64,000 nt of DNA, taken from an uncultured Candidatus Rokubacteria bacterium (GTDB lineage Bacteria; Methylomirabilota; Methylomirabilia; Rokubacteriales; CSP1-6). The stretch is from the NCBI GenBank assembly GCA_963721815.1, contig CAVRLO010000024.1, positions 422,234 through 486,233 of the forward strand, given 5' to 3'. The notes beneath the pieces are model-generated. The model was not told the DNA's origin, ran no database searches, and saw nothing but the letters and a program-made list of their open reading frames with translations. Of this stretch, positions 5,698-51,727 are shown piece after piece. Made by a program: the position numbers and the translations under genes. Positions within the stretch are counted from its first letter, which is position 1, and each line of letters begins with the position of its first letter.

Positions 5698-6519
5698 ATG
5701 GCGGCAGTCAAGATCACGGCGCTCCATCCGTCGCTCGGAGCCGAAGTCACCGGCGTCGACCTGAGCCACTCGATCGACGCGCCGACTCGCGAGGCGCTGT
5801 CGCACGCGCTGGCGGATCATCTGGCGCTCGTGTTCAGGGAACAGACCTTGACGCCGGCACAGTACCTCGCCGCCGCATCGGCGTTCGGCCCGCCGATGGA
5901 GCAGCACTACTCGCAGCACAACATGCCCGACTTTCCGCTGATCGGCCTGATCTGGCACCGGAACGGCCAGCAGCCCGCGGAGCAGTGGCACACCGACCAC
6001 ACCAACCGCGAGCGCCCGCCGGCCGCGACCATCCTGTACGGCGTGGAGATTCCATCCGCCGGCGGTGGCACGAGCGTGGCGAGCATGCGCGCGGCCTACG
6101 TCGCGCTTGCCGAGAGCGAACGGAGGCGCCTCGAGTCGCTGACGACGTTCAACAGCCTGGACCGCGATCGCGGCGACACGCGTCAGGACGATCTGGACAA
6201 GTACGGCAAGCCCATCGAGCACCCGATGGTGCGTACTCATCCCGTGCACGGCTCGCGGGCCGTGTACTTCCACATCACCAAGGCGACTCACATCGACGGA
6301 ATGACGCCCGAAGCAAGCCGGGCTTACATGGCCGACCTCCTCGACCGCATGATCCGGCCGGAGATCGTCTATCACCACGTGTGGCGCAAGGGCGACGTGC
6401 TGGTCATCGACGACCGCGCGACGATGCACCGGGCGCACGGGGATTACGATCGCCGCCAGAGCCGCATCCTCTGGCGGATCATCGTCGAGGGCGATCGGCC
6501 GCGGCTGGTGCTTGGTTAG
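5698..6519 (+). CDS. TauD/TfdA-family Fe(II)/2-oxoglutarate-dependent dioxygenase
   Basis: 'WHTDHTNRERPPAATILYGVEIPSAGGGTSVASM...RATMHRA' His/Asp facial triad pattern; SD GGGAGG. Confidence 0.8.
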   Translation: MAAVKITALHPSLGAEVTGVDLSHSIDAPTREALSHALADHLALVFREQTLTPAQYLAAASAFGPPMEQHYSQHNMPDFPLIGLIWHRNGQQPAEQWHTDHTNRERPPAATILYGVEIPSAGGGTSVASMRAAYVALAESERRRLESLTTFNSLDRDRGDTRQDDLDKYGKPIEHPMVRTHPVHGSRAVYFHITKATHIDGMTPEASRAYMADLLDRMIRPEIVYHHVWRKGDVLVIDDRATMHRAHGDYDRRQSRILWRIIVEGDRPRLVLG

Positions 6520-19137: not shown

Positions 19138-19713
19138 CTACTTGGTCGCGAAGCAGTAGAAGAAGCCGTTGCCCCCGGTGCTCTTCAGATCGTTCTGGCT
19201 GCAGCCACCGTCGGGGCCGCGCGAGGGATGCGAGGAGTTCCAGGATTTCGACGCGTCGTCGTCGCGCAACCCCTGCCGGTCGTGGTGGCCGACCATCGCC
19301 GCGCCCTGGCCGCTCTTCGTCCAGTTGCCGCAGGTGCGATCCTCGGCGGCCGCGAACGCGGTGCCGTCGGGCTGCGAGCCCGTCAGGATGTCGTGCATGT
19401 TCGGCGTGTCGCCGCGCCCGTTCACCGGCTCGCCCTTCTCGGTCAGCGCGGTCTGCTTGGTGACGTTGTTCTGGCCGTGCAGCTCGGCCAGGCTCTTCGC
19501 GACGACGGCGCCTTTCGCGTTCTGCCAGGGGCCGCTGCCGATGCGGTCGCGCGCGTTGACGGCGCCGGGGTCCTGGGTGCTGAGATACGCACGCCAGGTC
19601 TTGCCGCCGGCGCCCGCCGCCTGAGCGAGCATCTGGCACTGCTTGTCCGCGCCGGCGAGGCCGCCGAGGTCCCCGCCCTTTCCGGAGCCGGCGCTGGTGA
19701 CGAAGAACGTCAT
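19138..19713 (-). CDS. hypothetical protein ('MTFFVTSAGSGKGGDLGGLAGAD' family); a likely signal peptide is encoded in the adjacent frame up to 19806 (possible frameshift)
   Basis: 'MSDRIALSILQALSLLSF' signal-peptide-like sequence ends one frame away from '..AHAQQAD-MTFFVTS'. Confidence 0.4.
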   Translation of the reverse strand: MTFFVTSAGSGKGGDLGGLAGADKQCQMLAQAAGAGGKTWRAYLSTQDPGAVNARDRIGSGPWQNAKGAVVAKSLAELHGQNNVTKQTALTEKGEPVNGRGDTPNMHDILTGSQPDGTAFAAAEDRTCGNWTKSGQGAAMVGHHDRQGLRDDDASKSWNSSHPSRGPDGGCSQNDLKSTGGNGFFYCFATK

Positions 19714-19815: not shown

Positions 19816-20283
19816 TCAAGTCGTAGCCGCGGCGCGCCTCGCCTCGCGCAGCCCGGCGAGGATCGCATCGCGATCGAGGCTCATTTCCATCAGCGCGACC
19901 TGGGCCTCGTACACGTCCGCCGGCACCTGGTCACGCACCTCGGGCTCGAACACGTGAAACACAGGGAGCCCCAACGGGACTCCGGCCAACGGGCCCGCGT
20001 AGGAAGGATCGCCGGCGACGACGGTCTGGGCGAGCGTCTGCGTGCTCTCGGCGTCGGGGGTCCCGAGCAGGACCACCACGCCGCTGCCGTGCTCGTCCGC
20101 GATTCGCTTCACCGCCGCTTGATCCTCCAGGCCCATGGCGCCCGCCGCCGTTCAGACGTAGCAAGCGGTCAGGGTCAGCACGACGTCGGCGCCAGCGCGG
20201 CTCGCGCATTCCGCGACCGCGGGGCCCGGCACGCCGTCGCGCTCGCCGAGCGCGATGACCTTCTTGCCTCGGAGATCCATCAT
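19816..20283 (-). CDS. grdA: glycine/sarcosine/betaine reductase complex selenoprotein A (GrdA); UGA (Sec) at 20152..20154
   Basis: '[61 protein letters not shown]' matches the GrdA CxxU context; ATG overlaps the GrdC-like stop (ATGATG/TGA). Confidence 0.8.
20152..20154 (-). other. in-frame UGA, predicted selenocysteine codon of GrdA
   Basis: conserved position 44 in the 'CYVU' motif. Confidence 0.75.
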
Positions 20284-21734
20284 GTCGCTCCTTTCGCTCC
20301 GTTGCGCTCCAGGACGAGCGAGAGCCCGTCGGGGAGCTGCGTCATCCGTCCAAGAAACAGACTACCCTTGCCCGCGAACATCGTGCGGGTGAGGCGGCCC
20401 TCCGTGAGCCCGCGCCGCGCGTGGCCGAGGTACGGGATCGCCGAGGCGATGTGCCCCTGGGTCGGCGAGAATCCCGGCATGCCGCGCGTACGAACGAAAT
20501 CGTCGATGCCCTCGCGAGCGATCAGCTTCTCGACGACGGCCAGGCTCGCCAGGGTCCGGTAGTTGTTGAGCGGGACGTTGCCGCTGCCGGCGGGCTCGGT
20601 CGCTTCGGGGTTGTGCAGCTCGAGCGAGAAGCGGTCGACGTCGAGCAACGTGAGGCCGACCCGCCCGAGCGGCTCGCTGTAGAGCGATTTCACCACCGCG
20701 AGCGGGGCGGAGCCCGAGCCGACCTCGTGGCGGCCGATCGCGTCGAGCCGCAGGGTGGGCGAGACGCCGTCGTCGCGCGAGACGTGAACGGCGAAGCCGG
20801 CCAGGACGTCCTCGACGATCGGCATCGCGTGCTTCAGGTGGCCCTGGAACTTCATCCCCAGCTTGGCCAGCGAGCCGCCCGCCACCACGACCACGTCGTC
20901 GTGCAGGCCGCTGCGGACGAGCGCGCCGGCCAGCATCAGCGCGTGCATCGGCCCGCAGCAAAACGCCTTGATGTCGCTGCCGGTCGCGCGCGCGCAGCCG
21001 GCCCACTCCGCGACCGCCTTGGCGACGTTGCCGCCGCCCCGCTGATAGCGGTCGCCGACCGCCTCCTCACCGCAGTTCATGACGTAGCGCACGTCGGCGG
21101 CGGCGATCGCGCCGGGGCGCGCGAGCAGGTGACGCAGCGCCATCGCCGCGGTCGCCTTGCACGCGAGGTTCTCCAGCAGGACCTGGCCGGTCAAGGTGTC
21201 GTCCTCGTCGTGGCCCGGCAGCATGGCACCCAGGAGCCGTCCGTCCACCCCGACGATCGGCAGCGCCCGATGCCTCGCGATGCGCTCGTCGAGCAGGGCC
21301 TCGGTGACCCCGGCGCGCACCGGAGGGCGGCCGGACTCGCGACCAACTATGGGATGCGCGTCGAGCGCCGCGCGCGCGCGGTCGGCCAGGTCACGCTCGA
21401 GGGCCAAAAGGTCGAAGCCATCCGAGGCCGCCAGCAGGCCGAAGAACTCGTGCTCGGGCATGATCTCGCCGTCGGGCCCGAAGCGGCTCGCGGCTTCGAT
21501 GGGATGGCGATGCCACGGGACCGGCCGGGCGGCGAGGTCGTCCACGCCGACATTGCCGATGAATACCTGATTGGGCGCGTAGGTGCGCGCGGCGTCCCAG
21601 TCGCGCAGATGGGGCCGCAAGTACTCGATCGGTTTCTCGACCTCGCGCAGCACGCGCAGCGGCTTCGAGCCCAGGCGCACGAGGCTCGGCACGTGCGCCA
21701 GCACGAGGGAGACCGCGCGGACAACGGGCATGTC
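20280..21734 (-). CDS. GrdC-like protein (glycine reductase complex component C beta-subunit-like, thiolase/FabH-fold)
   Basis: ~485 aa; coupled to grdA; start chosen at '[18 protein letters not shown]' (ORF runs to 21767). Confidence 0.55.
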
Positions 21735-21763
21735 GCTCGAAGGCATGCGAGTCACGCGAGGCA

Positions 21764-22629
21764 TCATACCCTCTGGCCGGCTCGCAGCGCACGGTAGCGG
21801 GCAGGCGTGAGGCCAAAAGCCGATTTGAACGTTCGGGTGAGGTGCGCCTGGTCGGCGAAGCCCACCTCGTACGCGACCTCGATCAGCGGACGCCCGCGAT
21901 GAATCAGCTCGCGCGCGGCATCGAGGCGGCGCATGAGCAGATACCGGTAAGGGCTCGTGCCGAACATGAGCCTGAACTGGCGGGCCAGGTCGTAGCGGGT
22001 CAATCCCGTGACCGACTCCAGCTCGTCCGAGCGAACCACGCGCGTTTTCGCGGCGTCCAGAAACCGGCGCGCGCGCTCGGCGGCGACGGCGTCGACCCGT
22101 CTCGAGGCCCCGGGAGGTTCCCCTGCGTGCTCCGCGGCGAGCAGGCCGTCGGCCAGATCGACGACGAGACTGGTCGCCGCCAGCGATTCCAGCGGGAGCC
22201 GGAAGGCGGCGTCGAGCGCGCGGGCCAACCGGGTGTTCGCGGACACCGGGTCACGTACGAACGGCAACGGACCGGGACGTCCACGGAGGGTCCGCACCGC
22301 CTCGGCCAGGTGGGCGGGCTCGACGTAGACGATGCGGTATCCGAACCCCTCCTCGGTGCCCGCGCGGCCGTCGTGGGCTTCGTCGGGGTAGAGCACGACG
22401 ATCTGTCCCGGGGTACTGACCCGTGTGGCGCCCCGGTAGTCGAAGACTTGGGCTCCGCGGTCGGTCAGGCCGATCGCGTACGTGTCGTGGCGGTGCTTCT
22501 GGTAGGCGACGCCGCCGAACCAGGCGCGAAACAGCTCGACGCCCTCGGCCGGGTTCGTGCTGGTGACCCAGCTTCGGGTCGCGCGCGTGCACGATCGTTC
22601 AAGACCCTCGCCGCCCGATGTGGTCTCCT
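21764..22629 (-). CDS. AraC-family transcriptional regulator (cupin N-domain + HTH)
   Basis: C-terminal 'YRYLLMRRLDAARELI...EVAYEVGFADQAHLTRTFKSAFGLTPARYR'; GTG start proposed at 22629. Confidence 0.6.
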
Positions 22630-22649: not shown

Positions 22650-23248
22650 GTACGACTACAGAGCAGCTCGCCGCGTTCCTTCTGTTCGCCGTGGTGGCCG
22701 CGGTCACACCCGGACCCAGCAACGTCATGGTGATGGCCGCCGGCGCGAATGCCGGCCTCGTGAAAGGGCTTCCGTGCCTCCTCGGTGTCGCGACCGGCAT
22801 GGGGCTCATGATGTTCCTGGTGCCGCTCGGGCTGGGGAGCGTCGTGCTCCAGCATCCCATCGGGATGAAGGCGCTCAACTGGGGCGGCGCCGGCTATCTA
22901 CTCTGGCTCTCGTGGAAGATCGCAACCGCGAGGGGTATCGAATCGGCTCCCGGGTCGCGGACGGTCGGCTATCTTCAGGCCGCGGCGTTTCAGTGGGTCA
23001 ACCCAAAGGCGTGGCTCGTGAGCGCGAGCGCCGCGGGAACGTTTCTCAGCGCGCAGGCGGGCAGCCCGGCCGTGCAGTCCGTCTATCTCGGCGGGCTCTT
23101 CTTCCTGGCGGCACTGCCGAGCGGCTTTGTCTGGCTGGCGTTCGGGGCCACGATCCAACGCTTTCTCGGGAGCCCACGGAGACTCAGGATCTTCAACGTC
23201 GCGATGGGGGCCCTCCTCGCCGTCTCGATCGCCCTCATCGTCGCGTAG
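22650..23248 (+). CDS. LysE/RhtB-family amino-acid exporter (start codon unresolved)
   Basis: 'FLLFAVVAAVTPGPSNVMVMAAG' LysE N-terminus; no canonical start in frame upstream; divergent from the AraC gene. Confidence 0.55.
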
Positions 23249-23263: not shown

Positions 23264-23944
23264 CTACCGGCTCCCCACCGGGCTTTGGCCGGCGATCTGC
23301 GCCGTCTCGGGCGACAGCGGAATCACACCGCCGGGCTCGCCGGCCAGGATCCAGTCGATGAGCAGGCGATAGCGATCCGTCGGCACGGCGCCCACCAGCG
23401 AGAGCTTCTCGTTGAGGACGACGGTCGGCAGGCCCGACACGCCGAACCACGCGGCGCCCTCGGCGCAGTCGCGCAGCACGGCTTCGTAGGCCTCGCCGGC
23501 GTAGTCGGCCTCGAAGCGCGTCGGATCGAGCGCCGTTTCGCGGATGAGGCTGCGCAGCACCTCCGGGCGCGAGATGTCGAGGTTGTCGCGGAAGTGCGCG
23601 GTGAAGAGCCGCTCGTGGAATCGCTCGAACGCCGCGTCACCCTGGAGCTCGGCGCACTTGGCGGCCGTCAGCGCCGGCACGCTCGAGGACGGCAGCGGCG
23701 TGTCGATCTCCGGCGGCACGAAGACGGCGCGAGGCTCCTCGGCGCCGACGCGCTGCCGCCCTTCGCGCGTCTTCTGGGTGACGCGCCGGTCGGGCTGCTC
23801 GCCCGGGATCAGCGGGAAGGTCCGCCAGTGGAGCCGGATACGATCGCCGTAGGTCTGCTGGATCTCGCGCAGGCGCACCGCGGCGTTGTAACACCAGGGA
23901 CACAAGTAGTCAGAGAAGACGTCCACGCGGACCGGCGCGGTCAT
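23264..23944 (-). CDS. DsbA-like (FrnE-type) thioredoxin-fold oxidoreductase with CPWC motif
   Basis: 'VDVFSDYLCPWCY'; ATG overlaps the GrdB-like stop (ATGA). Confidence 0.7.
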   Translation of the reverse strand: MTAPVRVDVFSDYLCPWCYNAAVRLREIQQTYGDRIRLHWRTFPLIPGEQPDRRVTQKTREGRQRVGAEEPRAVFVPPEIDTPLPSSSVPALTAAKCAELQGDAAFERFHERLFTAHFRDNLDISRPEVLRSLIRETALDPTRFEADYAGEAYEAVLRDCAEGAAWFGVSGLPTVVLNEKLSLVGAVPTDRYRLLIDWILAGEPGGVIPLSPETAQIAGQSPVGSR

Positions 23945-25264
23945 TCGCGCGTGAACACCGTGGGCCGCGCCACCTCGGTGCGCAGCGCCTGGAGCGCCTG
24001 CTCGACGATGCGCCGCCGCAGCGCCTTCTCGTCCTCGGGCGAAAGATCCGCGCTGCCCAGGGGATGGATGATCCCCGCGGCCGACACGATGCGATTGGCG
24101 CCGACCATCACCGCCACCGGCGTCATGGTCGAGACCTGCACCGTCGGTAACCCCGCGCGCTCGAGCTCTCGCGTGATCGCTGCGCCGCAGCGAGTGCTCG
24201 TCCCTCAGGTGGAGGTGAGGATGACGGCGTCGACGCCGGCGGCGCGCAGCTTCTCCGCGATCTCCCGCCCCATGCGCGCGCTCTGGGCCAGGGTGGTCGC
24301 GACGCCGACGGTCGAATAGACCGTCTCGTGGAGCTTGCCGATCGCGCCGCTCTGCTCGAGCTCGCGCGCGACGTCCACGGGCACCAGCCGATGCGGATCC
24401 TGCTTTACCCACGTGGTGTCGTAGCCGCGATGCGGATTGTCGTACTGGGTCGCGTCGAGGCTCGACTTGCCCTCGATGCTGTAGGCGCCGTAGCGGGTCG
24501 CGTTCAGGGCCTCGATCCCGTCGGGGTTGCCTTGCGGGACGAGACCGCCGTCGGTGACGAGCGCGATCGTCGCGCCCTCGAGCGTCTTGATGAGCCGCGG
24601 CGCCGCGACGGGCGGGAACGCCGGCCTCGGCACCTCCGTCGCGAAGGCCCGGCCGCCGAGCTTGTCGAGCAGCATGGCCACGGCGCGATCGGCGGCGCTG
24701 GCGCCGGCGACGACGTTGCGGGTGACGCCACGGGCGAAGTAGCCGTGAGCGGCCGGGCTGCCGAGCGCCTCGCCGCGCGCGAGCTTCAATCCGAGCCCCA
24801 CGAGCCGCTGCACCTCCGGGAGCATCCGCGTGGCTTCCGCGCCGGTCTGGACGACGTAGACCTGGCGGCGATAGAGCTCGACGCCGGGATTCTCGGCGTG
24901 CATGCCGGTCACGGTCGGAATCTTCAGCTCGGCTTGCACCGCGGCGCAGAGCGCGCCGCACGCGACGCCGTAGCGGCCGGCCAGGAACGCCGGGCCCGGC
25001 CACCAGGAGATCGGGCCGCGCCGCGGCCACCAGGCGCACCAGCTCGGCGGTCGCGCGCTCGGCCTGCTCGGCCGCGTAGTTGTCGCCGCAGATCACCGTC
25101 GCGACGACCGTGCCCGCGTCGCCGAGCGCCTGCTGGACGGCGCGCGCGGCCCCGACGGCCCCGTCCGCGACCTGGGGCCCGACGCCGGCCTTCTCCTCGC
25201 CGCCGAGCTGGCCGAAGAACTGGTTGAGGTAGCAGACGACTCGCAACGTCTCGGCCGCCATCAC
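23941..25264 (-). CDS. GrdB-like selenoprotein (glycine/sarcosine/betaine reductase component B family), paralog 1; UGA (Sec) at 24205..24207; apparent +1 frameshift near 24990
   Basis: N-terminus 'LRVVCYLNQFFGQLGGEEKAG' (ORF 23264..25264 frame); middle 'AFLAGRYGVACG...GVDAVILTST' then TGA then 'GTSTRCGAAITRELERAGLPTVQVSTMTPVAVMVGANRIV' (ORFs 24205..24939 and 23941..24141 share a frame). Confidence 0.7.
24205..24207 (-). other. in-frame UGA, predicted selenocysteine codon of GrdB-like paralog 1
   Basis: 'ILTST-U-GTSTRC' context; CGCTGC-GGC-GCAGCG hairpin downstream. Confidence 0.7.
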
Positions 25265-26523
25265 CGCACCTCCGCCATCACTCTGGTTGTCCCGACCTGC
25301 TCGATCGCGCCGCAGAGCCCGCCGTACGTGACGCGAGTCTCGCCCAGGAGCTTCGGCGCCAGATCATCGGCGCCGATCACACGGTCCATCGCCGGCAAGG
25401 TGAGCGGCTCCTGGCTGCTCCCGACGTTCACGAGCGCGTCGACCCCTGGAAAATCGAAGAGCAGCATGCCCTCGGCGCTGCCGTCGGTCGACATGTCCTC
25501 GACGACCGCCGTCGTCTTCACGCCCAGCGCCTCGCACTGCGAGGCCGCCTGCGCCATGTCGACGTGCGGGGCGCCGCCGCCGATCTTGGTGAGGACGGCG
25601 CCGTCGGCGCCGAGCGTGTGCGCGACGAGCCCGGCGGTGAGGAACGCCGAGCGTACGCGCTCGGGCTCGGTCGCCTGCGCGACGGTGACGACCACGCCCG
25701 CGAACCAGAGCGTGCGGCCGTGCTGCGCGTAGAGCGCCCTGATCATCGGATGATTCTGGGTCGCCCACGTGGTCACGCTGCGGCCCATGAAGCCCCGGAG
25801 CACGGCGCCGTCGAGGACTTCGTTCGGGTGCACGATCGTCGGCAGCATGCGACGCACCGGATCGCCGTAGAGGATTCCCTCGTCGAGGCCCGTCGGGCGC
25901 TGGTGCGAGTGGATCTGGAAGACGTAGGCCACGCGCGGCAGATGCGCGAGCTCGGCGGGAACGCGCGGCGAGGGCGGCAGCTCGAACACCTCCACCCGAT
26001 CGGGCGCGGCCTCGTGCGCGGCCCGGGCGAGGTGCACCGCGGCCTTCAGCGCGGCGAGCCGCACGGCGGCCAGATAGTCGGAGCGCTCGGTGCCCGGCGA
26101 GGGCCAGGCCGAAATTACGAGGTTGTGCGTGCGGCCGAACGCCGAGAGCGCCGCGTTGGGGCCGGCCATGTCGATCACGGCCAAGGTGCCGACGTTGTCC
26201 GTCTGCTGATCCGTCGCGACGACCGCCACGCCGGCCAGCGCCGTCGTCCGCCCGTGGCCGGCGCGCCCGACGCCGCCCAGGACGCCCGGGAAATCCTCGC
26301 CGCCGTCGACCTTCGCCCGCGGCGCGATCACGTCGAACACCCGACCGATGCGGCAGCGCTCGCCCGGATGCGCGAGGTCGAGGCGAATCCGGGCGAGGCG
26401 CGAGTCGGCGGACAGGAGCTCGCGCAGCTCGTCGAGATCGACCTCGAGCCGCTTGCCCACCAGACGCGTGACGGGCGCGGCCACGAGGGCGTCCACGTCG
26501 GACCAGCGTAGCTCGAGTCGCAT
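25261..26523 (-). CDS. GrdE-like proprotein (component B alpha/beta subunit family), paralog 1
   Basis: 420 aa from 'MRLELRW'; homologous to the 41055..42395 product; the longer ORF extension to 27126 is an artifact. Confidence 0.6.
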   Translation of the reverse strand: MRLELRWSDVDALVAAPVTRLVGKRLEVDLDELRELLSADSRLARIRLDLAHPGERCRIGRVFDVIAPRAKVDGGEDFPGVLGGVGRAGHGRTTALAGVAVVATDQQTDNVGTLAVIDMAGPNAALSAFGRTHNLVISAWPSPGTERSDYLAAVRLAALKAAVHLARAAHEAAPDRVEVFELPPSPRVPAELAHLPRVAYVFQIHSHQRPTGLDEGILYGDPVRRMLPTIVHPNEVLDGAVLRGFMGRSVTTWATQNHPMIRALYAQHGRTLWFAGVVVTVAQATEPERVRSAFLTAGLVAHTLGADGAVLTKIGGGAPHVDMAQAASQCEALGVKTTAVVEDMSTDGSAEGMLLFDFPGVDALVNVGSSQEPLTLPAMDRVIGADDLAPKLLGETRVTYGGLCGAIEQVGTTRVMAEVR

Positions 26524-26531
26524 GGCGGCGG

Positions 26532-27509
26532 CTACGCGAGCAGGCTGCGCAGCTCGGGGACGACCCAGAGCGGCGACCGCCCGGCTTCCATGCGCTGGAT
26601 GTTGTCGAAGCCGTTTCGATATGCCTTCGTCCAGTTGTCCCACGTCGGTCCGGCGCTGTGCGGCGTGAGCGTGACGTTCGGCAGCGAGAACAGCGGGTGA
26701 TTCTGCTTGGGCGGCTCTTCGACCATCACGTCGAGGCCGGCGGCGGCGATCGTGCCCGACGTGAGCGCCCGGTGCAGCGCGTCCTCGTCGACGACCGGGC
26801 CGCGGCAGGTGTTGATGAGGATCGCGCTCTTCTTCATCATCCCGAGCTCGCGCGTCGAGATCATCTTGCGGGTGACGTCGTTCAGGGGCACATGCAGGGT
26901 CACCACGTCGGACGTGCGGAGCAGCTCGGTGAACAAGGTGAAGCGCACGCCGAGCGCGTCTTCCTGGTCCTCGGTGAGCCGGAGGATGTCGTAGTAGCGC
27001 ACGTCCATGTCGAAGCCCTGGACGCGTCGCGCGACCTTCTTGCCGATGTTGCCGAGGCCGACGATGCCCAGGCGCTTGCCCTCGACCTCGTAGGTGCGGT
27101 TCTCGGCGAAGTCGGCGACGCGCCACTTGCCGGCGGCGACGTTGTTGTGGTGGTACACGAGCTTCTTGAGCACGGCGAGCATGAGCATGACGGCGTGCTC
27201 GGCGACGGCCACCGAGTTGGCGCCGCCGTTGTTGGCGACGGGGACCTTGGCCTTGCGCGCGGCCTCGACGTCGACCCGGTCGTAGCCCGCGCTGGTCAGC
27301 TGGATCAGCTTGAGCTTGGGCGCGGCGCGGAAGAACTCGTTGCCGATGCCGGTGCGCGGCGAGCCCAGATAGTACTCGGCGTCGGCGGCCTTGTCGTAGA
27401 ACTCGGGCTTACCCGGATCGACGACGACCAGCTCCATGCCGGGCGGGAGCAGCTCGCGCGCGATGTCCATGACCGGGGCGGGTTGGGGCGGCGTGAGGAT
27501 CTTGGTCAC
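26532..27509 (-). CDS. D-isomer-specific 2-hydroxyacid dehydrogenase (NAD-binding)
   Basis: 'GIVGLGNIGKKVARR' Rossmann motif; 325 aa; first gene of the grdE/grdB-like operon. Confidence 0.8.
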   Translation of the reverse strand: MTKILTPPQPAPVMDIARELLPPGMELVVVDPGKPEFYDKAADAEYYLGSPRTGIGNEFFRAAPKLKLIQLTSAGYDRVDVEAARKAKVPVANNGGANSVAVAEHAVMLMLAVLKKLVYHHNNVAAGKWRVADFAENRTYEVEGKRLGIVGLGNIGKKVARRVQGFDMDVRYYDILRLTEDQEDALGVRFTLFTELLRTSDVVTLHVPLNDVTRKMISTRELGMMKKSAILINTCRGPVVDEDALHRALTSGTIAAAGLDVMVEEPPKQNHPLFSLPNVTLTPHSAGPTWDNWTKAYRNGFDNIQRMEAGRSPLWVVPELRSLLA

Positions 27510-27568: not shown

Positions 27569-28904
27569 ATGGCCGACGAGGACTCCTCGGATCTCGGCGC
27601 CCGCGCGCGGCTGGAGGCGGCCTTCGCGCGGGAGGAGCGCCGCGGATTGATGCTCGCCGCCGCGGCGCGCTCGGCGGCGGTGGCGGTGATCATCGTCTGG
27701 CTCGCGCTGGCGAACCCCGACACCGGCCGGGCCTATCTGTGGACCCTCGGCACGGCGTGCTTCCTTCTCGTCACCGGCCTGGCGCAGTTCTGGCTCTACT
27801 GGCGACAGCTGGCGCCTCCGATCGTTCCCTACGCCTTCGTCCTCGTCGACTCGCTGGCGCTGGCGGCGGCCATCCTCCTTCCGAATCCGTTCGACACGAT
27901 GAACCTGCCGCCGGCCCTGCCGCTGCGGTACGCCTCCTTCATGTACTTCTTCGTCCTCCTCATGCAGGCCGCCTTCTCGTTCCGGCCGCGACTGCTGCTC
28001 TGGACGGGGTTGAGCGGCGTCGTCGCCTGGACGCTCGGCTTTCTCTGGATCGTCACCCGGCCCGAGACCATCGTCCTTCCGGGCCGCGGCCGCGCCGCCC
28101 AGCTCCCCGTGTACTTCGATCGCAACTTCGCCTCGCTGATCAAGTTCGAGAACGAGATCATCGTGTTCTTACTGGTGAGCGCCGGGCTGGCGCTCCTCGT
28201 CCGGCGCTCGCGCTCGCTAGTGGCCGAGCGGGCGGCGGCCGAGCGCGCCCGCGGCAACCTGGCCCGTTACTTCTCGCCCAAGGTCGTGGACACCCTGGCC
28301 GAGCGCGACGAGCCGCTGGGCCGCGTGCGCCGCCAGGCGGTCGGCGTGCTCTTCGCCGATCTCGTGGGGTTCACGACCATGGCCGAGGACATGACCCCTG
28401 AAGAGGTCATGGCGTTGCTGCGCGATTTCCACGGCCGGATGGAAGAGGTGGTGTTTCGCCACAACGGCTGCCTGGAGAAGTTCATCGGCGACGCCCTGCT
28501 GGCGACGTTCGGTGTCCCCGAGATCGGCCCGCGCGACGCCACCGACACGCTCGCCTGCGCGCGCGCCATGCTGGCCGCGCTGCATGCGTGGAATCAGGAG
28601 CGGACGGCGGCTGGGCTATCGGGTCTGCACATGGGGCTCGGCCTGCATTACGGCCAGGTGGTAGCCGGCGACATCGGCAGCCGACGGAGCATGGCCTTCG
28701 CGACGGTGGGCGACACCACCAACGTCACCAGCCGCCTGCAGGCGCTCACCCGGGACTTGCGCACGAGCATCGTGGCCAGCGGCGCGCTCGTCGCCGCCAT
28801 CGAGCGGGAGGCCGCCGACGTGAAGCTGCTCGCAGGGACTGACCTCCCGCGGCCCGCACGCCCTGCGCGGGCGCGACACGCTCATCGAGCTGTGGGCGGA
28901 GTGA
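27569..28904 (+). CDS. membrane-anchored class III adenylate/guanylate cyclase; apparent frameshift near 28850
   Basis: multiple TM segments then 'VLFADLVGFTTMAE...FIGDALLATFG'; native C-terminus 'HALRGRDTLIELWAE*' lies in another frame. Confidence 0.65.
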
Positions 28905-28933
28905 GGGAAGCTCTGTCCGGGGGAGGAGCTGCC

Positions 28934-30052
28934 GTGGTCTCGACGTTCGCCGCGCTCGTGCTGGTGGCGGTGGTCGCATTCGCCGGGGAGGCGCCGCGAT
29001 CGCCGAACCCGAAGCACAGCCGGCTGCCCGCGCGTCAGGTCGATGTCGCGCAAGGGCTCGAGCACCCCTGGGGACTGGCGTTTCTTCCCGACGGTGGCCT
29101 GCTCGTCACCGAGCGCGCGGGCCGGCTCCGGGTCGTGGACCGCAACGGTGTGCTGTCGGAGCCGCTCGCCGGCGTCCCCCAGGTCCGCGCCGGCGGCCAG
29201 GGCGGGTTACTCGACGTCGCGCTGAGTCCCACGTTCGCTCAAGATCGGCTCGTCTATCTCTCGTTCTCCGAGCCGGGCGAGGGCGGTGCCGGCACCGCTG
29301 TGGCGCGTGGGCGGCTCGGCGAGCGCGGGCTCGAGGACGCCCAGACGATCTGGCGCCAGCACCCGAAGGTGGGCGGAGGCCTTCACTGGGGCTCTCGGCT
29401 GATGTTCCGCTCGGACGGCACGCTCTTCGTCACGCTCGGAGACCGGGGCTCGCGCGACTACGCTCAGGATCTCTCCACCACCATCGGCAAGATCGTCCGG
29501 ATCAACGGCGATGGTACGATCCCGCGCGACAACCCGTTCATCGGTCGCTACGGCGTCCGGCCGGAGATCTGGTCGTACGGCCATCGCAACGCGCAGGGGG
29601 CCGCGCTCGACGCGCGCGGACAGCTGTGGACCATCGAGCACGGCGCCCGCGGCGGGGACGAGGTGAACCACCCGGAGCCCGGCCGCAACTACGGCTGGCC
29701 CATCATCAGCTACGGCGTCGACTATTCCGGCGCCAAGATCGGCGTCGGCACCACGCGGCCGGGCATGGAGCAGCCGGTCTACTACTGGGATCCGGTCATC
29801 GCGCCCTCGGGCGCGACGTTCTACAGCGGCGACGCGTTTCCCGACTGGCGAGGCGACCTGCTGATTGGCTCGCTGAATCCCGGCGGCCTCGTGCGCCTGA
29901 GACTCACCAACGGTCGCGTCGCCGGTGAGAGCCACTACGTGATCGATCCCGGCGAGCGCGTCCGCGATGTACGGCAAGGGCCGGACGGGATGATCTACGT
30001 CCTGACCGACAATTCCCGCGGTCGCATCGTCCGTCTCGAACCGTCGCGATAA
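28934..30052 (+). CDS. PQQ-dependent soluble sugar (aldose/sorbosone) dehydrogenase, secreted
   Basis: SD GGGGGAGGAG then GTG; signal peptide; 'HPWGLAFLPDGGLLVTERAGRLRVV'; previously merged into an 827 aa ORF. Confidence 0.65.
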   Translation: MVSTFAALVLVAVVAFAGEAPRSPNPKHSRLPARQVDVAQGLEHPWGLAFLPDGGLLVTERAGRLRVVDRNGVLSEPLAGVPQVRAGGQGGLLDVALSPTFAQDRLVYLSFSEPGEGGAGTAVARGRLGERGLEDAQTIWRQHPKVGGGLHWGSRLMFRSDGTLFVTLGDRGSRDYAQDLSTTIGKIVRINGDGTIPRDNPFIGRYGVRPEIWSYGHRNAQGAALDARGQLWTIEHGARGGDEVNHPEPGRNYGWPIISYGVDYSGAKIGVGTTRPGMEQPVYYWDPVIAPSGATFYSGDAFPDWRGDLLIGSLNPGGLVRLRLTNGRVAGESHYVIDPGERVRDVRQGPDGMIYVLTDNSRGRIVRLEPSR

Positions 30053-30246
30053 GCGCGCGCTACTGGCGAAGATCCTTACAGTCAGCTCGCGTGCTCTTTA
30101 TCTTGGCCCTTGCTTCTGCCCATGCGCCGTTCATGAACTCATCGTGGGATTGTGAATTCCTGGGAACTCGGGGCTCGATCGGAAGTCTGGTCCTTTTCTT
30201 GCGCATATAGTATGGTTTGCCCATCTTCGATCGGAGGGAGACGCGA

Positions 30247-30894
30247 ATGCGGCCTGCTTTTGTTTCCTCGTTGCTCGGTGTCCTGACTTCCGCGGTGCTC
30301 TTGTTCGGCGTGCATGGGAACGCTGGCGCCGCCCTGCTGTTCACGGATAATTTCGACGCCGAGCCGCCGGTGTCCTCGCAGCTCAACTACAACGCGTTCG
30401 CCAACTGGAACGTCAGCAACGGGACCGTCGACCTCATCGTCAGCGGCCAGTTCAGCATCGATTGCGTTGGCGGCGTGGGCAAGTGCGTCGACATGGACGG
30501 CAGTATGTCGAATGCCGGGCGAATCGACACGAAGACCACGTTCAATCTGGCGCCGGGCGACTATGTGCTGAGTTTCAGCGCCTCGGGCAATCAGCGTCTC
30601 ACCACCGCGGTCAACGACTCGATGACGTTCGGGTTCGACGCCATCACCGGCTCCGTCGCGATCCCCGACCCGAACGCGCCGTTCGCGACGTTCACCCTGC
30701 CGTTTACGCTTTCCGGCACCACGTCAGGCACGGTCTTCTTCGAGCATGACGGCGGCGACAACTTCGGGATCATCCTCGACAACGTCGTGCTCGAATCTCG
30801 CGGGGCTCAGGGCGTGCCCGAGCCATCGGTGTTCTTGCTGATGGGCGCGGCCGCGGCGGCAGGCGCGATCGGCTTTCGGCGCCGCCGAGGCTGA
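30247..30894 (+). CDS. PEP-CTERM sorting-domain protein (secreted/exosortase substrate)
   Basis: signal peptide; C-terminal 'VPEPSVFLLMGAAAAAGAIGFRRRRG'. Confidence 0.7.
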   Translation: MRPAFVSSLLGVLTSAVLLFGVHGNAGAALLFTDNFDAEPPVSSQLNYNAFANWNVSNGTVDLIVSGQFSIDCVGGVGKCVDMDGSMSNAGRIDTKTTFNLAPGDYVLSFSASGNQRLTTAVNDSMTFGFDAITGSVAIPDPNAPFATFTLPFTLSGTTSGTVFFEHDGGDNFGIILDNVVLESRGAQGVPEPSVFLLMGAAAAAGAIGFRRRRG

Positions 30895-33707: not shown

Positions 33708-34535
33708 ATGGACATCGGCAGTGGCAAGATCGCCTGTGGCCCGATCGGCTTCGCCCTTCAGTATCGCGACATCGACGGAGGCGCACCGCACCGCCAGGGC
33801 GCGGGAGGCGGGGGCGGCAACCATGCCGATCAGGGCGTGTGTCTGCAAGTGCTGGGCAAGGTGGACGACGCCGAGCGCGAGCTACTCCGGTTCGAGTGCC
33901 TCGACAATCATCCGCACTATCACTACGACCCGGCGGGGACCAACGTCCGCGTCATGCTCGACCCCACGGTCACCGGCAATCCGCTTCGATGGACGATGAC
34001 CCAGCTGCGCCGCAAGCTGCCGGCGATGCTCGGCCGCGCCGGATATGAGCAGATCGCGTTGCAGATCGACCCCTCGCAGCTCCTGCCCGTGCTGGACGAG
34101 GTGGAGGCCAAGGCGTGCGAGATGGCGATCCGCAAGCGCCGCACGGTCCGCCACAACCGGGGAACCGACGTGATCGAAGCGGGCAACGTCCGGTTCGGCC
34201 TCGAGATGCGCGTCGCGGGCCAAGGGGACGGTGGCATCGCCATTCACGTCCTCGGCGACATCGCCGGCCAGGAGGTCGAGCTGCTCGCCTTCGACTGCTT
34301 CCGCATCTACCCGCACTATCATTACGGGCCGATGTACAAGAACGAGCGCATCTACCTGGACAAGACCCTGGTGCCGGATCCCTTCAAGTGGGCGCTCGAT
34401 CAGTTCAAGGGCGGGAAGCTTCCGGCCATGCTGACGCGTGCGGGCTATCCGACGGTTGCGGCCGCTCTCGACGAGGGACTCGTCGCCCAGAAACTCCTCG
34501 AAGTCGACGCGAGGGCGCAGGCCATGCTCGGCTAG
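33708..34535 (+). CDS. hypothetical protein with an internally duplicated ~90 aa domain ('PHYHY' motif)
   Basis: two repeats: 'ELLRFECLDNHPHYHYDP...LPAMLGRAGY' and 'ELLAFDCFRIYPHYHYGP...LPAMLTRAGY'. Confidence 0.45.
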   Translation: MDIGSGKIACGPIGFALQYRDIDGGAPHRQGAGGGGGNHADQGVCLQVLGKVDDAERELLRFECLDNHPHYHYDPAGTNVRVMLDPTVTGNPLRWTMTQLRRKLPAMLGRAGYEQIALQIDPSQLLPVLDEVEAKACEMAIRKRRTVRHNRGTDVIEAGNVRFGLEMRVAGQGDGGIAIHVLGDIAGQEVELLAFDCFRIYPHYHYGPMYKNERIYLDKTLVPDPFKWALDQFKGGKLPAMLTRAGYPTVAAALDEGLVAQKLLEVDARAQAMLG

Positions 34536-34545
34536 GCAGCTCGCC

Positions 34546-35484
34546 TCAGGCGAGGTGCTTTTTGAAGAAGGTGATCGTCCGCTCCCAGGCCAGCTTGGCC
34601 GCGGCTTCGTTGTAGCGCGGCGTCGAGTTGTTGTGGAACCCATGCTGGGTCCCGGGATACATGTGCATCTCGTACGGGACGCCGCTCGCCTTCAACGCCG
34701 CCTCGTAGGCCGGCCACAGCGCGTTGATCCGCTCGTCGCTCTCGGCGTACTGGATCAGCAGCGGCGCCTTGATCTCCGGTACGCGCGCCGTCTCGGCCGC
34801 CGCGCCGTAGAACGGGACGCCCGCTTTCAGATCCGCGCCGAGCGTGACCGCCAGGAAGTTGGTGGTGCTGCCACCCCAGCAGAAGCCAGTGACGCCGAGC
34901 TTGCCGGTAGACAGCGCATGCGCCTTCACGAAGCGCGCCCCGTTGACCATGTCCGTGCGCAGCTTGCCCTGGTCGAGACCGGCCTGGAGCGTACGGCCGT
35001 CGTCGTCATTGCCCGGGTAGCCGCCCACGGGCGATAGCCCGTCCGGAGCCAGCGCCAGGAAGCCCTCGGTCGCGGCACGGCGCGCGACATCTTCGATGTA
35101 GGGATTGAGCCCGCGGTTCTCGTGGATCACCAGGACGGCGGGAAACGGCCCCTGGCCAGTCGGCTGCACCAGGTATCCGCGCATGGTGCCCGACGTACCG
35201 CCCGGCGACGGGTAGGTCACGTAGCGAGCTTTGATTCGCGTGTCGGTGAAGGAGATCGTCTGGGCCAGCGCATAGCGGGGCAACAGCGCCTGCGCCATCG
35301 CTAGCGCCGACACGCCGCCGATCGTCAGCAGGCTGGCCCGCTGCAGGAACTCACGCCGGTCGATGGTCCCGTGGCAGTACTCGTCGTAGAGATCGAACAC
35401 GCGCTGGTCGATCTCGGTCTGCCTCAGCGTCGGCGGCGCCTCCGGTGCGATGAGTGCCCGATCCGTCTTCGAGTCTTCAGCCAT
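34546..35484 (-). CDS. dienelactone hydrolase family protein with Tat signal
   Basis: 'RREFLQRASLLTIGGVSALA'; 'GVTGFCWGG' nucleophile motif. Confidence 0.7.
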   Translation of the reverse strand: MAEDSKTDRALIAPEAPPTLRQTEIDQRVFDLYDEYCHGTIDRREFLQRASLLTIGGVSALAMAQALLPRYALAQTISFTDTRIKARYVTYPSPGGTSGTMRGYLVQPTGQGPFPAVLVIHENRGLNPYIEDVARRAATEGFLALAPDGLSPVGGYPGNDDDGRTLQAGLDQGKLRTDMVNGARFVKAHALSTGKLGVTGFCWGGSTTNFLAVTLGADLKAGVPFYGAAAETARVPEIKAPLLIQYAESDERINALWPAYEAALKASGVPYEMHMYPGTQHGFHNNSTPRYNEAAAKLAWERTITFFKKHLA

Positions 35485-35527
35485 GGTTCGATCTCCTCCG
35501 TTGCGATCCACCGAGCCCAGGGGACCG

Positions 35528-41054: not shown

Positions 41055-42395
41055 TCAGGTGAGCGGCGCTCGGGGGCCGTCTACTCGATGCAGCTCAAGC
41101 TGCTGAAGCCATAGTGGTCGTCGTACCGCCACGGCGGCGGGAGCGGCCCCGCCGTCGGCAGCGCGGCGCCGTCCACGCCGCCATGAAGCCCGATGGTCGA
41201 GCCCCGCCGCACGATCTTCGTGGGCGCGCCGATCACGCGCGAGACCGCGGGCGCTTCGGGCACGGCCAGGGTGACGTTCTTGAAGAAGCTCGTGCTCACG
41301 ATCGCGTCGGCCTCGGGCAGGGGCTCGAGCATGGTGGGCGCGCCGTCGGTCGCGTCGTCCTCGCTGGTGAGGAACACGGTCTTGATGCCGAGGCGCTCGC
41401 ACGCCTGGATGCTGCGCACCACCTCGATGAACTCGTTGCCTCCCGCGTCCCACGTGACCACGGCGCCCTGCGCGCCGAGCTGGCTGGGCGAGCTTGGCCG
41501 TCTGATTGGCCATCAGCTGCTTCTCGGTTTGCGTGGTCCACTCCGTGCGGAGCGAGATGACGCCGAGGAAGTTCCAGTCGCGGCCGTGGCGGCGGTAGAG
41601 GTCGAGGAAGAGCGGATTGTTGGCGACGGTCCATGACATCGCGAACGCGGTGCGGTAGGGGCCGGTGAGCGCGCCGTCCAGGATCTCGTTCGGGTGCAGA
41701 TACCACGGCGGCGTGAGCTGGGTCAGGCCGTACGTCGCCGTGCAGAACGCCGAGGGTGATGCCGACATCGCCTGCGGCGAGTGCACGCACCAGATGTAGA
41801 CCACCTTCGGGAGCTCCGGATCCACCGGCGTCAGCTCGAAGACCTCGCGCTCGGGCGGCGTGAGCGCGCGCACCGCTTCGCCGAGCTGGTCGGCGACGGT
41901 GAGCGCCGCCTTGTGCACGGCGTAGTTCTTGACCTCTTCGTTCAGGCTCGAATCGGGCTCGACGACCAGGCAGAGGTTCAGGAGCTTCTGGTAGGGGTAC
42001 ATCTCGCCGTAGTGGCCGGACATGTCGAGGTACGTCTCGACGAAGTCGCCGCCGGCGTCGTGCCAGTTGACGCTCGACACCTCGACGACGCCCATGCCGG
42101 CGAGGCGATGCGTGCGGCCGTCGCCCACCGTGGCGATCTCGCGCCCGCAGATGCCGGGATAGCAGACGCCGGGCCCCTCGACCTTGACGCGCGGCTCGAT
42201 CACGTCGCGCACCGGCCAGATCCGGACCGACTCGCCCGGCTTCGCGATCTCGAGCCCGGCGCTCGCGATCCGCGGATCCTGGCGCACCGCCTCCAGCACC
42301 GCCTCGCGGTCCACCGTGAGCCGGCCCGCGTCGTAGCGCGTCGTTCGCCCGAAGACGATGTCCGTGACCGGGAAGGTGCCCATCTCAAGACGCAT
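41055..42395 (-). CDS. GrdE-like proprotein, paralog 2; apparent +1 frameshift near 41495
   Basis: N-terminal ~320 aa in the ORF 41055..42395 frame; C-terminal '[27 protein letters not shown]...' in the ORF 41081..41461 frame; homologous to paralog 1. Confidence 0.55.
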
Positions 42396-43734
42396 GAGCC
42401 GCCTCCTCAGTCTTACCTGGCGCCATAGGGTCGAAGAGCGTCGGCCCGGGCACGGCGATCGTCAGGGTCTGGAGCGCGGTGGTCACGATGCGCATACCGA
42501 AGGCGTAGTCCTTCTCCGGGCTCAAGGTCGGGTCGCCGCACACGTGCTCGATGCGCGCGCCGCGGATCACGCGGTTCGCGCCGGTCGTGAGGGCGAAATT
42601 GTAGATGGCCGAGATCATGCCGACGGGGATGCCGACTCGCTCGATCTCCTTGGCTATCGTTGCGCCGCAACGATTGCAGGTTCCTCAGGTGGCGACCAGC
42701 AGGGCCCCGTCGACGCCGCCGGCCTTGAGGTCCTGGGCGATGCTGCGGCCGTGCCCGGCCGACACCGCCACCGGCGTGCTCACGCCGGGCAGCGCGTAGA
42801 TGTGCTCGTGGACGCGGCCCACCTTGCCCTGGCGCTCGAGATCGCGCAGGAACGAGAGCGGCAGGATGTAGTTCGGGTTGCTGTTGACGAGATGGTTGAA
42901 GTAGCCGGCGTGGTAGGCCTCCCATTCGGCCGGCGAGAGCGACTCGAGCTCGGTCACCGTGTGCCGGTGATAGCGCACGGCGTTCGCCGAGACCTGCCGG
43001 TCGGGGTTGCCTTTGCGGACGAGCCCGCCGGTCGTGACCATCGCGATGCGCGCGCGCGAGAGGTCGGCGATCGGCGCCGCCGGGGCCACGCGCTCCGGCG
43101 CCGCGTAAGGCACTTCCGACCGAAAGGGCCGGCCGTGGAGCTTGTCGAGCAGCATGTCGAGCGCGCGCTGATAGCCCGGTCGCCCGCGGTCGTGCACGCG
43201 GCGCGTGCCGCGAGGCATGTAGCCCTCCACCTCGGACGGCCCCAGCGACTCACCGCGGCCCAGGCGCCGCGCGAGCGGGGCCAGCGCGTCGAGCGCGGCC
43301 TGCATCGACGTCGTCGACGAGCCCGAGGGCACGATGTAGATCCCGCGCCGCGCGCCCGAGGCGCCCGGATTTTCCGGATGCATCGCCGTGATCGCGGCAA
43401 TGCGCAGCCCCTGGGCCACCTTGCAGGCGAGCGCGCAAGCCAGGCCGTATCGCCCCGATCCGAACGCCGGACCGGCGACCAGCACGTCGGGCTTGATGCG
43501 CTCGAGCTCGGCTGCGATCGCGCGCGCGGCTTCGGCTTCGCTTTCGCTCGCGAAGTTGTCGCCGCAGACGATGGTCGCCTCGACTCGCGCGCCGTCGCCG
43601 AGCGCCTTCTCGAGCACGCGCCCCGGGCCGACGGCTCCGGCTTGCACGGACACGCCGACGTGCGCCTGATCCTCGCCGCCGATGCCCCCGAAGAACTGGT
43701 TCACGTAGTGCACGACGCGAAGCGGACTGCTCAT
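42385..43734 (-). CDS. GrdB-like selenoprotein, paralog 2; UGA (Sec) at 42685..42687; frame intact
   Basis: '[18 protein letters not shown]' N-terminus; '[10 protein letters not shown]' then TGA then '[30 protein letters not shown]' (ORFs 42685..43734 and 42385..42618 share a frame). Confidence 0.75.
42685..42687 (-). other. in-frame UGA, predicted selenocysteine codon of GrdB-like paralog 2
   Basis: 'VAT-U-GTCNRC'; ATCGTTGC-GGC-GCAACGAT hairpin starting 13 nt downstream. Confidence 0.75.
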
Positions 43735-50373: not shown

Positions 50374-50389
50374 ACTCGGCGCCCGCGCG

Positions 50390-50938: not shown

Positions 50939-50940
50939 GG

Positions 50941-51627: not shown

Positions 51628-51649
51628 CGGGTTCTCTGCCTCCCGGGAG

Positions 51650-51671
51650 ATTCTAGCGGAAATGCTAGAAT
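51650..51671. promoter_or_regulatory. perfect 8-bp inverted repeat ATTCTAGC-N6-GCTAGAAT between divergent pcaH and the livK-like gene (candidate operator)
   Basis: palindrome seen directly in an AT-richer intergenic region. Confidence 0.35.
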
Positions 51672-51727
51672 CCCTCCGCGCTTTGGGCCGAGACGTGACT
51701 GCTGCATCCGCGAGCATCGAGAGGAGA

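Follow-up and report, generated by a model that had tools for sequence, protein, structure and literature searches.

The stretch of DNA analysed here (64 kb, 68.7 % GC, hereafter the window) comes from Candidatus Rokubacteria and carries on its minus strand grdA and grdC, two genes of the glycine reductase family, the first of which contains an in-frame TGA codon for selenocysteine (Sec). Sequence comparisons indicate that the locus probably encodes a working selenoenzyme system of this family in a non-canonical variant, and that this system is probably modular, with a shared GrdA (Cys41, Sec44), one GrdC-type acyl-handling subunit and two different B complexes; the predicted set is complete save GrdD, but it is not of the canonical glycine type. 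The points of note are the modular organization with two B components, a DsbA-type redoxin encoded in the operon and a GrdC belonging to a large clade never seen beside GrdD.

Among anaerobic Stickland fermenters, glycine reductase is the textbook selenoenzyme, and through it energy is conserved as acetyl phosphate. The clostridial complex of Peptoclostridium acidaminophilum, Acetoanaerobium sticklandii and C. difficile is composed of GrdA, GrdB/GrdE, GrdC/GrdD and TrxA/TrxB, GrdC and GrdD together forming protein C (PMC9908766). The window shares with it a CxxU GrdA with UGA-encoded Sec, a GrdB-family selenoprotein with a GrdE-family partner, the thiolase-type Cys of GrdC and the modular A/B/C arrangement. 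Here, the A plus C-beta core is found in an uncultured and abundant soil phylum, beside oxygen-dependent catabolic genes; its two B complexes pass none of the known tests of specificity, and the subunit thought to make acetyl phosphate is missing. In itself the grdA-grdC pair is of a known kind, and the public annotation of metagenome-assembled genomes (MAGs) of Rokubacteria already names it; our literature search found no paper on glycine reductase in Rokubacteria and no relevant one on selenoproteins of this group.

The window proteins were mapped onto a comparison set of 80 loci with GrdC relatives (numbered with the prefix L), in which 10 kb on each side of grdC were covered; two further loci, L081 and L082, extend the set to 82. 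The nearest loci belong to MAGs of Candidatus Rokubacteria/Methylomirabilota, with a GrdC identity of 83–93 %. The first-pass annotation of the window, made from the letters alone, had recognized an AraC regulator, a GrdC-like protein and grdA in this order on the minus strand, and these identities hold on the basis of domain matches and of the NCBIfam equivalog cut-offs. It had overlooked a grdE1-grdB1-dsbA module on the same strand, 1 kb upstream of araC, and a grdB2-grdE2 pair 20 kb from grdA-grdC (Table 1). Since these two B pairs are present besides grdA-grdC, the window holds three genes with an in-frame Sec TGA (grdA, grdB1 and grdB2) and a full A, B and C-beta set. From a practical point of view, all three selenoproteins are truncated by standard gene callers.

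Selenoprotein A and its UGA codon

The TGA at codon 44 is the sole interruption of the 155-codon grdA frame. With Cys in place of the TGA, the Pfam family GRDA (PF04723) spans residues 4–149 of the product, straight across this position, with E = 1.5e-56, and the NCBIfam equivalog NF040748 is matched with 193.8 bits against a cut-off of 130. The codon is aligned with a TGA in 73 out of 73 homologs from the 80 loci, which span many phyla, and the residues that follow it (T-A/S-A/S-G-A-M/L...) stay in frame in all of them. The proposal that the open reading frame (ORF) is grdA, with Sec in a CxxU context, is therefore upheld by the models and by the conservation of the TGA. Compared with three Rokubacteria relatives, the ratio of non-synonymous to synonymous substitutions (dN/dS) of GrdA is 0.04–0.12 over 154 codons including the TGA, making it the most constrained gene of the locus by this measure.

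The reading of this TGA as an ordinary stop separating two small genes (43 and 106 aa) has in our judgement practically no chance of being right, and can be considered effectively refuted. It would agree with the automated gene calls in the relatives, which split GrdA into 42 + 106 aa and GrdB into 351 + 61 aa; this is the usual artefact of gene callers. It would also agree with the signals downstream of the codon, where no selenocysteine insertion sequence (SECIS) of Rfam was matched and no significant covariation was detected. When the 70 nt that follow the UGA were folded, their minimum free energy was no better than that of shuffled sequences (z = +2.2). A candidate 5-bp hairpin is present (Table 1), with one C.A mismatch in the window and perfect pairing in L002 and others; in its alignment 73 % of the cells pair, against at most 48 % in slid controls. 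However, a single model alignment crosses the TGA, the stretch TAAGA between it and the next Met is in frame in every one of the homologs in many phyla, the low dN/dS extends over the whole 154 codons, and Cys homologs of GrdA are not known, the protein occurring solely in the Sec form (PMC1794560).

Two B components and their predicted specificity

GrdB1, GrdB2, GrdE1 and GrdE2 all pass family-level models. GrdB1, once its frame is repaired, scores 518 bits with TIGR01918 and matches Pfam GRDB with E = 7.8e-136, and GrdB2, which is 44 % identical to GrdB1 (tblastn), scores 421 bits with TIGR01918. Sec is predicted in both: the GrdB homologs of the 80 loci carry a TGA at their own aligned site in every case, and in grdB1 the codon lies in the context ...AVILTST-U-GTSTRCGA.... 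Downstream of the grdB2 TGA, Rfam SECIS_4 is matched with 42.5 bits (gathering score 38, E = 1.7e-6), and a SECIS_4 match of 20.4 bits, below threshold (E = 0.56), follows the grdB1 TGA, sharing its offset and architecture with that of grdB2. No solved structure matched GrdA or GrdB by sequence.

The models specific for single substrates gave a different picture, all of those for GrdB2 being under cut-off. The glycine GrdB model TIGR01917 (cut-off 602) gives 478 bits for GrdB1 and 366 for GrdB2, the sarcosine GrdF model (cut-off 800) 492 and 404, and the betaine GrdH model (cut-off 775) 459 and 375. For GrdE1 and GrdE2, the sarcosine GrdG model gives 229 and 225 bits against a cut-off of 780 and the fluoroacetate FarE model NF053623 gives 172 and 129 against 675. 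Motifs described by Nobu et al. separate glycine GrdB and sarcosine GrdF from the other COG1978 proteins (PMC9751293); the glycine-GrdB motif is matched in full by 21 out of 24 canonical GrdBs of our set, whereas GrdB1 and GrdB2 match two of its six elements each, and no element of the GrdF motif (IHGGYDR...TTGTGT) was found in either.

The partner subunits point in the same direction. The pyruvoyl cofactor of glycine reductase derives from Cys242 of GrdE, as confirmed by mass spectrometry in C. difficile (PMC9908766). In the Parvimonas GrdE taken as reference, the Cys of the motif SGN-C-VSSCDKN is residue 242, and in the motif alignment both GrdE1 and GrdE2 are devoid of it. Around the Sec of GrdB, GrdB2 fits the UxxCxxC motif (U-GTC-NRC), whereas in GrdB1, and in all of its orthologs, the first Cys is replaced by Ser, giving UxxSxxC. 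Across the loci four classes of B motif can be recognized: the canonical U-GTC-TRC accompanied by a Cys242 GrdE, the U-GTG-TRC of actinobacterial and deltaproteobacterial loci, the U-GTS-TRC of the B1 type of the window, with E>B gene order followed by dsbA, and the U-GTC-NRC of its B2 type, with B>E order. The B1 and B2 types travel together, because both are found on one Rokubacteria contig (L042 7361–16904), in which a complete B2-type grdB-grdE-grdC-grdA cluster lies alongside a B1-type grdE-grdB-dsbA module on the opposite strand, 74–78 % identical to that of the window.

By model scores and motifs, neither B pair appears to belong to the glycine, sarcosine, betaine or fluoroacetate classes. 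Glycine bound as a pyruvoyl Schiff base is probably not the substrate; a betaine-like compound, or another that is not a primary amine, is the likelier candidate. Betaine reductase (GrdH/GrdI) resembles the predicted system in that a substrate-specific B component feeds shared A and C proteins, with a GrdE-family subunit that is not expected to undergo pyruvoyl processing; in work attributed to Andreesen, of 2004, and to Meyer et al., of 1995, GrdI is said to be unprocessed. The lack of the GrdE cleavage site is a betaine-reductase-like resemblance and no proof of membership: the GrdH scores are far below the cut-off, no betaine transporter is encoded nearby, and the canonical betaine reductase still uses GrdD.

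A B complex of this family acting on a non-amine substrate is represented by the fluoroacetate reductase FarE/FarB of Cloacibacillus porcorum (Synergistota), in which FarE is devoid of the pyruvoyl cysteines, FarB is devoid of CxxC and the B complex passes on to common GrdA and C proteins (PMC10838667). Unlike this system, the GrdE proteins of the window remain well under the FarE cut-off, no radical-SAM or oxalate/formate-type antiporter gene is present in the window, and Cloacibacillus porcorum has grdABCDEX, GrdD included. D-proline reductase (PrdA/PrdB) is likewise a Sec enzyme, with distant homology between GrdB and PrdB and between GrdE and PrdA; however, the PrdB model gives 92 and 71 bits against a cut-off of 300 and the PrdA model 26 against 700, and proline reductase uses no GrdA or GrdC.

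Component C, GrdD and the redox partner

The grdC product matches NF040746, the model of the component C beta subunit, with 588 bits (cut-off 450) and shows a weak similarity to KAS III/thiolase proteins around a conserved Cys, Cys258 in the 483-aa numbering, which is present in 98 out of 98 aligned GrdC sequences. Compared with the canonical proteins of Parvimonas, GrdA and GrdC of the window are 49 % and 43 % identical. The earlier description of an acetyl-phosphate-forming component C was right as to the beta subunit and overstated as to the whole, GrdD being absent from the window. With a Parvimonas ORF as query (NF040747, 593 bits), tblastn returned from the window only matches with E > 4, and homologs of GrdD were found only in the four Parvimonas loci of the set. 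A metagenome scan seeded with the same protein yielded 33 further GrdD loci, whose proteins are 48–98 % identical; a profile hidden Markov model (HMM) built on these gave no match with E <= 10, whether in the window or in the 10-kb flanks of grdC of 78 of the 82 GrdC loci. In the GrdD-bearing loci with upstream sequence, including those of Parvimonas, grdC immediately precedes grdD in all cases (29/29), and their B genes have canonical motifs wherever visible. A search for a substitute of GrdD, by clustering of all ORFs over the 80 loci, found as recurrent neighbours only GrdA, GrdB, GrdC and GrdE, thioredoxin (Trx, 33 loci) and TrxB (8 loci).

When 98 GrdC sequences were placed in a neighbour-joining tree rooted at the midpoint, 70 GrdD-less ones, that of the window among them, separated from 28 others, although the GrdD-less and GrdD-linked sets were seeded differently. 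The group of 28 is made up of 24 GrdD-linked sequences and of those of L035, L036, L049 and L057; L035 and L049 have canonical B genes, yet no visible GrdD, and L057 is a short contig. Thirteen columns of the alignment, in conserved motifs adjoining Cys258, split the two sets almost perfectly, with K255 replaced by R and KFQG by NGKD in the GrdD-linked proteins, which also have GD-MN-QRGGGN. The GrdD-less GrdC proteins are distributed among Rokubacteria, Actinomycetota, Dormibacterota, Chloroflexota, Desulfobacterota, Binatia, Latescibacterota and Desulfofundulus; Desulfovibrio desulfuricans, a studied non-Firmicute, has both C subunits (PMC7547702). A separate observation concerns a Chloroflexota contig (L036 2510–4457), which carries tandem copies of grdC, the first full and the second interrupted by the contig end after 168 residues; in certain lineages GrdC-GrdD might be replaced by such a GrdC-GrdC' pair.

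The architecture grdE-grdB-grdC-grdA without grdD occurs in about 60 of the related loci. Similar 'GrdEBCA' clusters have been described from Lost City and from serpentinite springs, in uncultured Chloroflexota, Bipolaricaulota and other groups, and were read as glycine reductase with no comment on GrdD (PMC9469722, PMC9751293). As in the window, no grdD is listed for them and their hosts lie outside the classical Stickland fermenters; they often include trxA and sel genes. The Rokubacteria version differs in being split by araC and lysE, in having a DsbA-like protein and in its two B pairs. Furthermore, Nobu et al. retained only sequences with the glycine-GrdB motif (PMC9751293), which the GrdBs of the window fail.

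These published readings bring in the alternative that the locus encodes an ordinary glycine reductase, converting glycine released from peptides or amides by the products of neighbouring genes into acetyl phosphate, with GrdD, thioredoxin and sel genes elsewhere in the genome. We regard it as unlikely, even though GrdA and GrdC match at the equivalog level, the NCBI and JGI annotations name the genes of the relatives 'glycine reductase' or 'betaine reductase', and the neighbours include peptide ABC binding proteins, an amidase, an M20 peptidase and a DAO-family flavoprotein of the glycine/D-amino-acid oxidase type, besides the interpretation of GrdEBCA clusters in MAGs (PMC9469722). Both GrdB paralogs, in fact, score well under the glycine cut-off and match only a third of the glycine-GrdB motif elements, both GrdE paralogs are devoid of the Cys that forms the pyruvoyl group, GrdD adjoins grdC in every sampled locus in which it is present, and the GrdC of the window falls in a separate clade.

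As for the redox partner, a thioredoxin gene lies between grdC and grdA in 29 loci outside Rokubacteria, whereas in Rokubacteria a DsbA-family gene (CPWC) is found after grdB1 instead. The window has no TrxA/TrxB, in contrast with the clostridial system. The DsbA-like protein is cytoplasmic, with no signal peptide, and its gene comes after the B1-type grdB in all Rokubacteria loci that continue beyond grdB, L042 included; its product may re-reduce GrdA. No SelA, SelB, SelD, Trx or TrxB and no tRNA were detected in the 64 kb; in agreement with the first-pass annotation, which had seen no GrdD, trx or sel genes nor tRNA-Sec in the window, the tblastn, GrdD HMM, tRNA and protein searches found none of these. 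In other phyla such genes adjoin GrdD-less clusters: selB, selA, tRNA-Sec and selD in L075 (2204–6931) and L045 (4358–9143), tRNA-Sec and selD only in L073 (94–1320). These loci are grdE-grdB-grdC-trx-grdA clusters of Actinomycetota and Dormibacterota, and the presence of sel genes or tRNA-Sec beside them indicates that organisms with this type of GrdD-less cluster decode Sec; in these genomes the grd cluster may be the main reason for doing so.

A possible course of the reaction can be modelled on the clostridial mechanism of Andreesen 2004, as it is quoted in later articles (PMC9908766, PMC10838667). By analogy, a B complex would bind an alpha-substituted acetate, whose leaving group would be displaced by the Sec of GrdB to form a carboxymethyl-selenoether; the carboxymethyl group would then be handed to Sec44 of GrdA, and the attack of Cys41 on the selenium would produce an Se-S bond and an acetyl equivalent trapped on the thiolase-type Cys258 of GrdC. 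The oxidised GrdA would finally be re-reduced by a thiol-disulfide protein, probably the DsbA-like protein of the operon rather than thioredoxin. The acetyl group could leave GrdC as acetyl phosphate, through a GrdD encoded elsewhere, or by direct release to phosphate, CoA or water from a GrdD-independent GrdC. A and C proteins shared by several B complexes have a precedent (PMC10838667).

The second way out leads to a broader reading, which we put forward tentatively and hold to be somewhat doubtful as a whole: the GrdC of the window would belong to a large subfamily of protein C, not distinguished before, that works without GrdD, and this GrdC, together with GrdA, a thiol redoxin and a pyruvoyl-less B component, would define a distinct class of Sec reductases in soil and partly aerobic lineages. 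Its substrates could lie outside glycine, sarcosine and betaine as now defined, and the release of the acyl group could differ from the clostridial paradigm, for example by direct phosphorolysis, CoA transfer or hydrolysis on GrdC. If the GrdD-less clade were truly independent of GrdD, the chemistry of protein C would need revisiting; for many phyla, MAG surveys would have read too much into their 'glycine reductase' calls, inferences on the reductive glycine pathway included; reductive C-X cleavage reactions in soils would form a new family open to testing; and a selenium demand would be assigned to lineages seldom counted as Sec users.

Frame breaks, gene order and genomic context

Two of the B genes are interrupted in the assembly. 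Relative to all relatives, single-base insertions are present in grdB1 near 24990 (judged against four relatives), in grdE2 near 41484 and in unrelated genes near 7065 and 10596; the extra base is T near 7065, C near 10596, G or C near 24990 and C near 41484. A fifth frame break splits an amidase near 60660 over two frames (59881–60666 and 60663–61406), which puts the density at about one break for every 5 kb of comparable coding sequence. The copies of the frame-broken genes in the relatives are all intact, and dN/dS is 0.04–0.21 for the grd genes and 0.04–0.30 for all genes of the locus. Similar breaks in unrelated genes, intact orthologs and low dN/dS indicate that those of grdB1 and grdE2 are most likely assembly errors and not signs of decay; such a density suggests assembly indels throughout, and any gene call in the window needs checking for them. 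Programmed frameshifting in grdB1 was ruled out, since the relatives are devoid of the extra base and similar insertions occur in unrelated genes.

The same lesions could be taken to mean that the locus is a decaying relic, with grd pseudogenes left in an aerobic lineage that has dropped an oxygen-sensitive selenoenzyme. The two frame breaks would accord with this, as would the lack in the window of GrdD, Trx, TrxB, SelA, SelB, SelD and tRNA-Sec and the occurrence in it of O2-dependent dioxygenases. We nonetheless consider decay quite improbable: the insertions in unrelated genes and the split amidase resemble assembly noise, the genes of the relatives are all intact and the grd genes under constraint, as the above dN/dS values show, the TGA codons are kept everywhere, and the frame-broken genes carry no further lesions.

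A working, non-canonical system of the glycine reductase family remains the reading that we prefer, and several points weigh against it. If the frame breaks of grdB1 and grdE2 were real, both B complexes would be dead; the Sec-insertion machinery, the thioredoxin system and GrdD are not visible in the 64 kb; and the candidate grdA hairpin, analysed in two registers over 43 sequences, showed covariation above shuffles in neither. Moreover, the GrdD-linked set was seeded from a single Parvimonas GrdD, and the picture of two clades could partly reflect sampling; as the relatives were covered to 10 kb around grdC, GrdD could be encoded elsewhere; no assayed member of the GrdD-less clade was found in the literature; and substrate, reductant and acyl product are those that we infer.

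The order of the genes is shared by more than 10 MAGs. The arrangement D-2-hydroxyacid dehydrogenase (2HADH)-grdE-grdB-dsbA-(lysE, reversed)-araC-grdC-grdA-DUF1554-like is kept in L001, L002, L006–L008 and L081/L082, whereas in L009 and L012 dsbA runs directly into grdC, with neither araC nor lysE between. This contiguity links the grdE-grdB-dsbA half of the locus with the grdC-grdA half, and the araC-lysE pair, which has no counterpart between the halves in the clostridial system, thus seems to have been inserted into an ancestral operon of the order grdE-grdB-dsbA-grdC-grdA. The araC gene is found in L001–L008 and L081/L082.

In the window the stop of araC overlaps a candidate ATG of grdC (GTATGATG) and the stop of grdC overlaps the start of grdA (ACATGATGG). 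The first-pass annotation had described grdA as translationally coupled to grdC and under the AraC regulator. The overlap is confirmed, but it is not conserved, the spacer in close relatives ranging from about 15 to about 600 nt, and coupling would follow from the overlap; similarly, araC does lie upstream, and from this position it may control the grd genes. Since the spacer varies and araC and lysE are absent in L009 and L012, coupling and AraC control would both be local features. A scan of the 19–27.8 kb region returned no promoter-like sites, and terminator-like sites no commoner than in shuffles, a result that is uninformative because of the 69 % GC of the genome.

Table 1. Features of the selenoenzyme locus, with their positions in the window
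Feature	Position	Strand	Remarks
grdA, selenoprotein A	19816..20283	-	155 codons; TGA codon 44 at 20152-20154; C41-Y-V-U44
Candidate grdA SECIS hairpin	20117..20132	-	GCCUG-GAGGAU-CAAGC; 22-37 nt after the U of UGA
grdC, component C beta subunit	20280..21767 (alternative start 21731)	-	Thiolase/KAS III-like; Pfam DUF5940
araC-family regulator	21764..22540	-	Pfam AraC_binding and HTH_18
LysE/RhtB-type exporter	22655..23248 (start approximate)	+	Divergent from araC; Pfam LysE, E = 2.2e-17; syntenic in relatives
dsbA-like, DsbA-family thiol-disulfide oxidoreductase	23264..23944	-	Abuts grdB1 stop; CPWC; Pfam DSBA, E = 9.9e-25
grdB1, selenoprotein B	23941..25261	-	Sec TGA 24205-24207; U-GTS-TRC; frame break near 24990
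grdB1 SECIS-like hairpin	24165..24204	-	Directly 3' of TGA
grdE1, GrdE-family partner of grdB1	25261..26523	-	Pfam Gly_reductase, 308 bits; RGFM---GRSVTTW
D-2-hydroxyacid dehydrogenase family gene	26532..27509	-	Directly upstream of grdE1; syntenic in relatives
grdE2, partner of grdB2 (B>E order)	41081..42395	-	Without Cys242; extra base near 41484
grdB2, second selenoprotein B	42385..43734	-	Sec TGA 42685-42687; U-GTC-NRC
grdB2 SECIS	42647..42684	-	Rfam RF01990 SECIS_4; starts at the base after TGA

For the D-2-hydroxyacid dehydrogenase gene, the best NCBIfam matches are glyoxylate reductase and PGDH, all under their cut-offs. One or two small proteins are encoded after grdA in all Rokubacteria relatives, with weak DUF1554/endostatin-like similarity; in the window they correspond to the small ORF or ORFs at 19138–19713 (-), syntenic with L081 12149–13472. 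The grdB2-grdE2 pair is flanked by a peptide ABC transporter operon and by a likely chorismate synthase gene, read from its translation. Among the RNA elements, a Guanidine-II-like match inside grdC (21508–21549, -) reached 18.8 bits against a gathering score of 32 (E = 1.6) and is almost certainly due to chance; Rfam matches to IRES_Bip and malK-III in the 19.7–24.4 kb region, far under their gathering scores and within coding sequence, were taken as chance as well.

The host also differs from the clostridial glycine reducers, being a soil bacterium of high GC content that has O2-dependent enzymes. Genes for aromatic and sulfonate catabolism at 49042–51885 (-), 5698–6519 (+) and 34546–35511 (-) encode a protocatechuate 3,4-dioxygenase beta subunit, a Lyase_1 protein of the muconate cycloisomerase type, a TauD/TfdA dioxygenase and a dienelactone hydrolase, and other genes of the window encode amidases, amidohydrolases, a DAO-family flavoprotein, an M20 peptidase and the binding proteins of peptide ABC transporters. 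The non-clostridial, aerobic-type context of amide and aromatic catabolism proposed earlier for this high-GC DNA agrees with the base composition, with the assignment to Rokubacteria and with the dioxygenases and amidases found. The ORF at 30211–30894 ends in what reads as a PEP-CTERM tail, with no Pfam family matched by the protein. At 27569–30052 (+), an 827-aa protein joins an adenylate/guanylate cyclase catalytic domain to a C-terminal beta-propeller of the glucose/sorbosone dehydrogenase type (GSDH), an unusual combination, behind an N-terminus that looks hydrophobic on reading, and at 33708–34535 (+) a protein with two DUF7700 repeats (E = 3.6e-74) is encoded.

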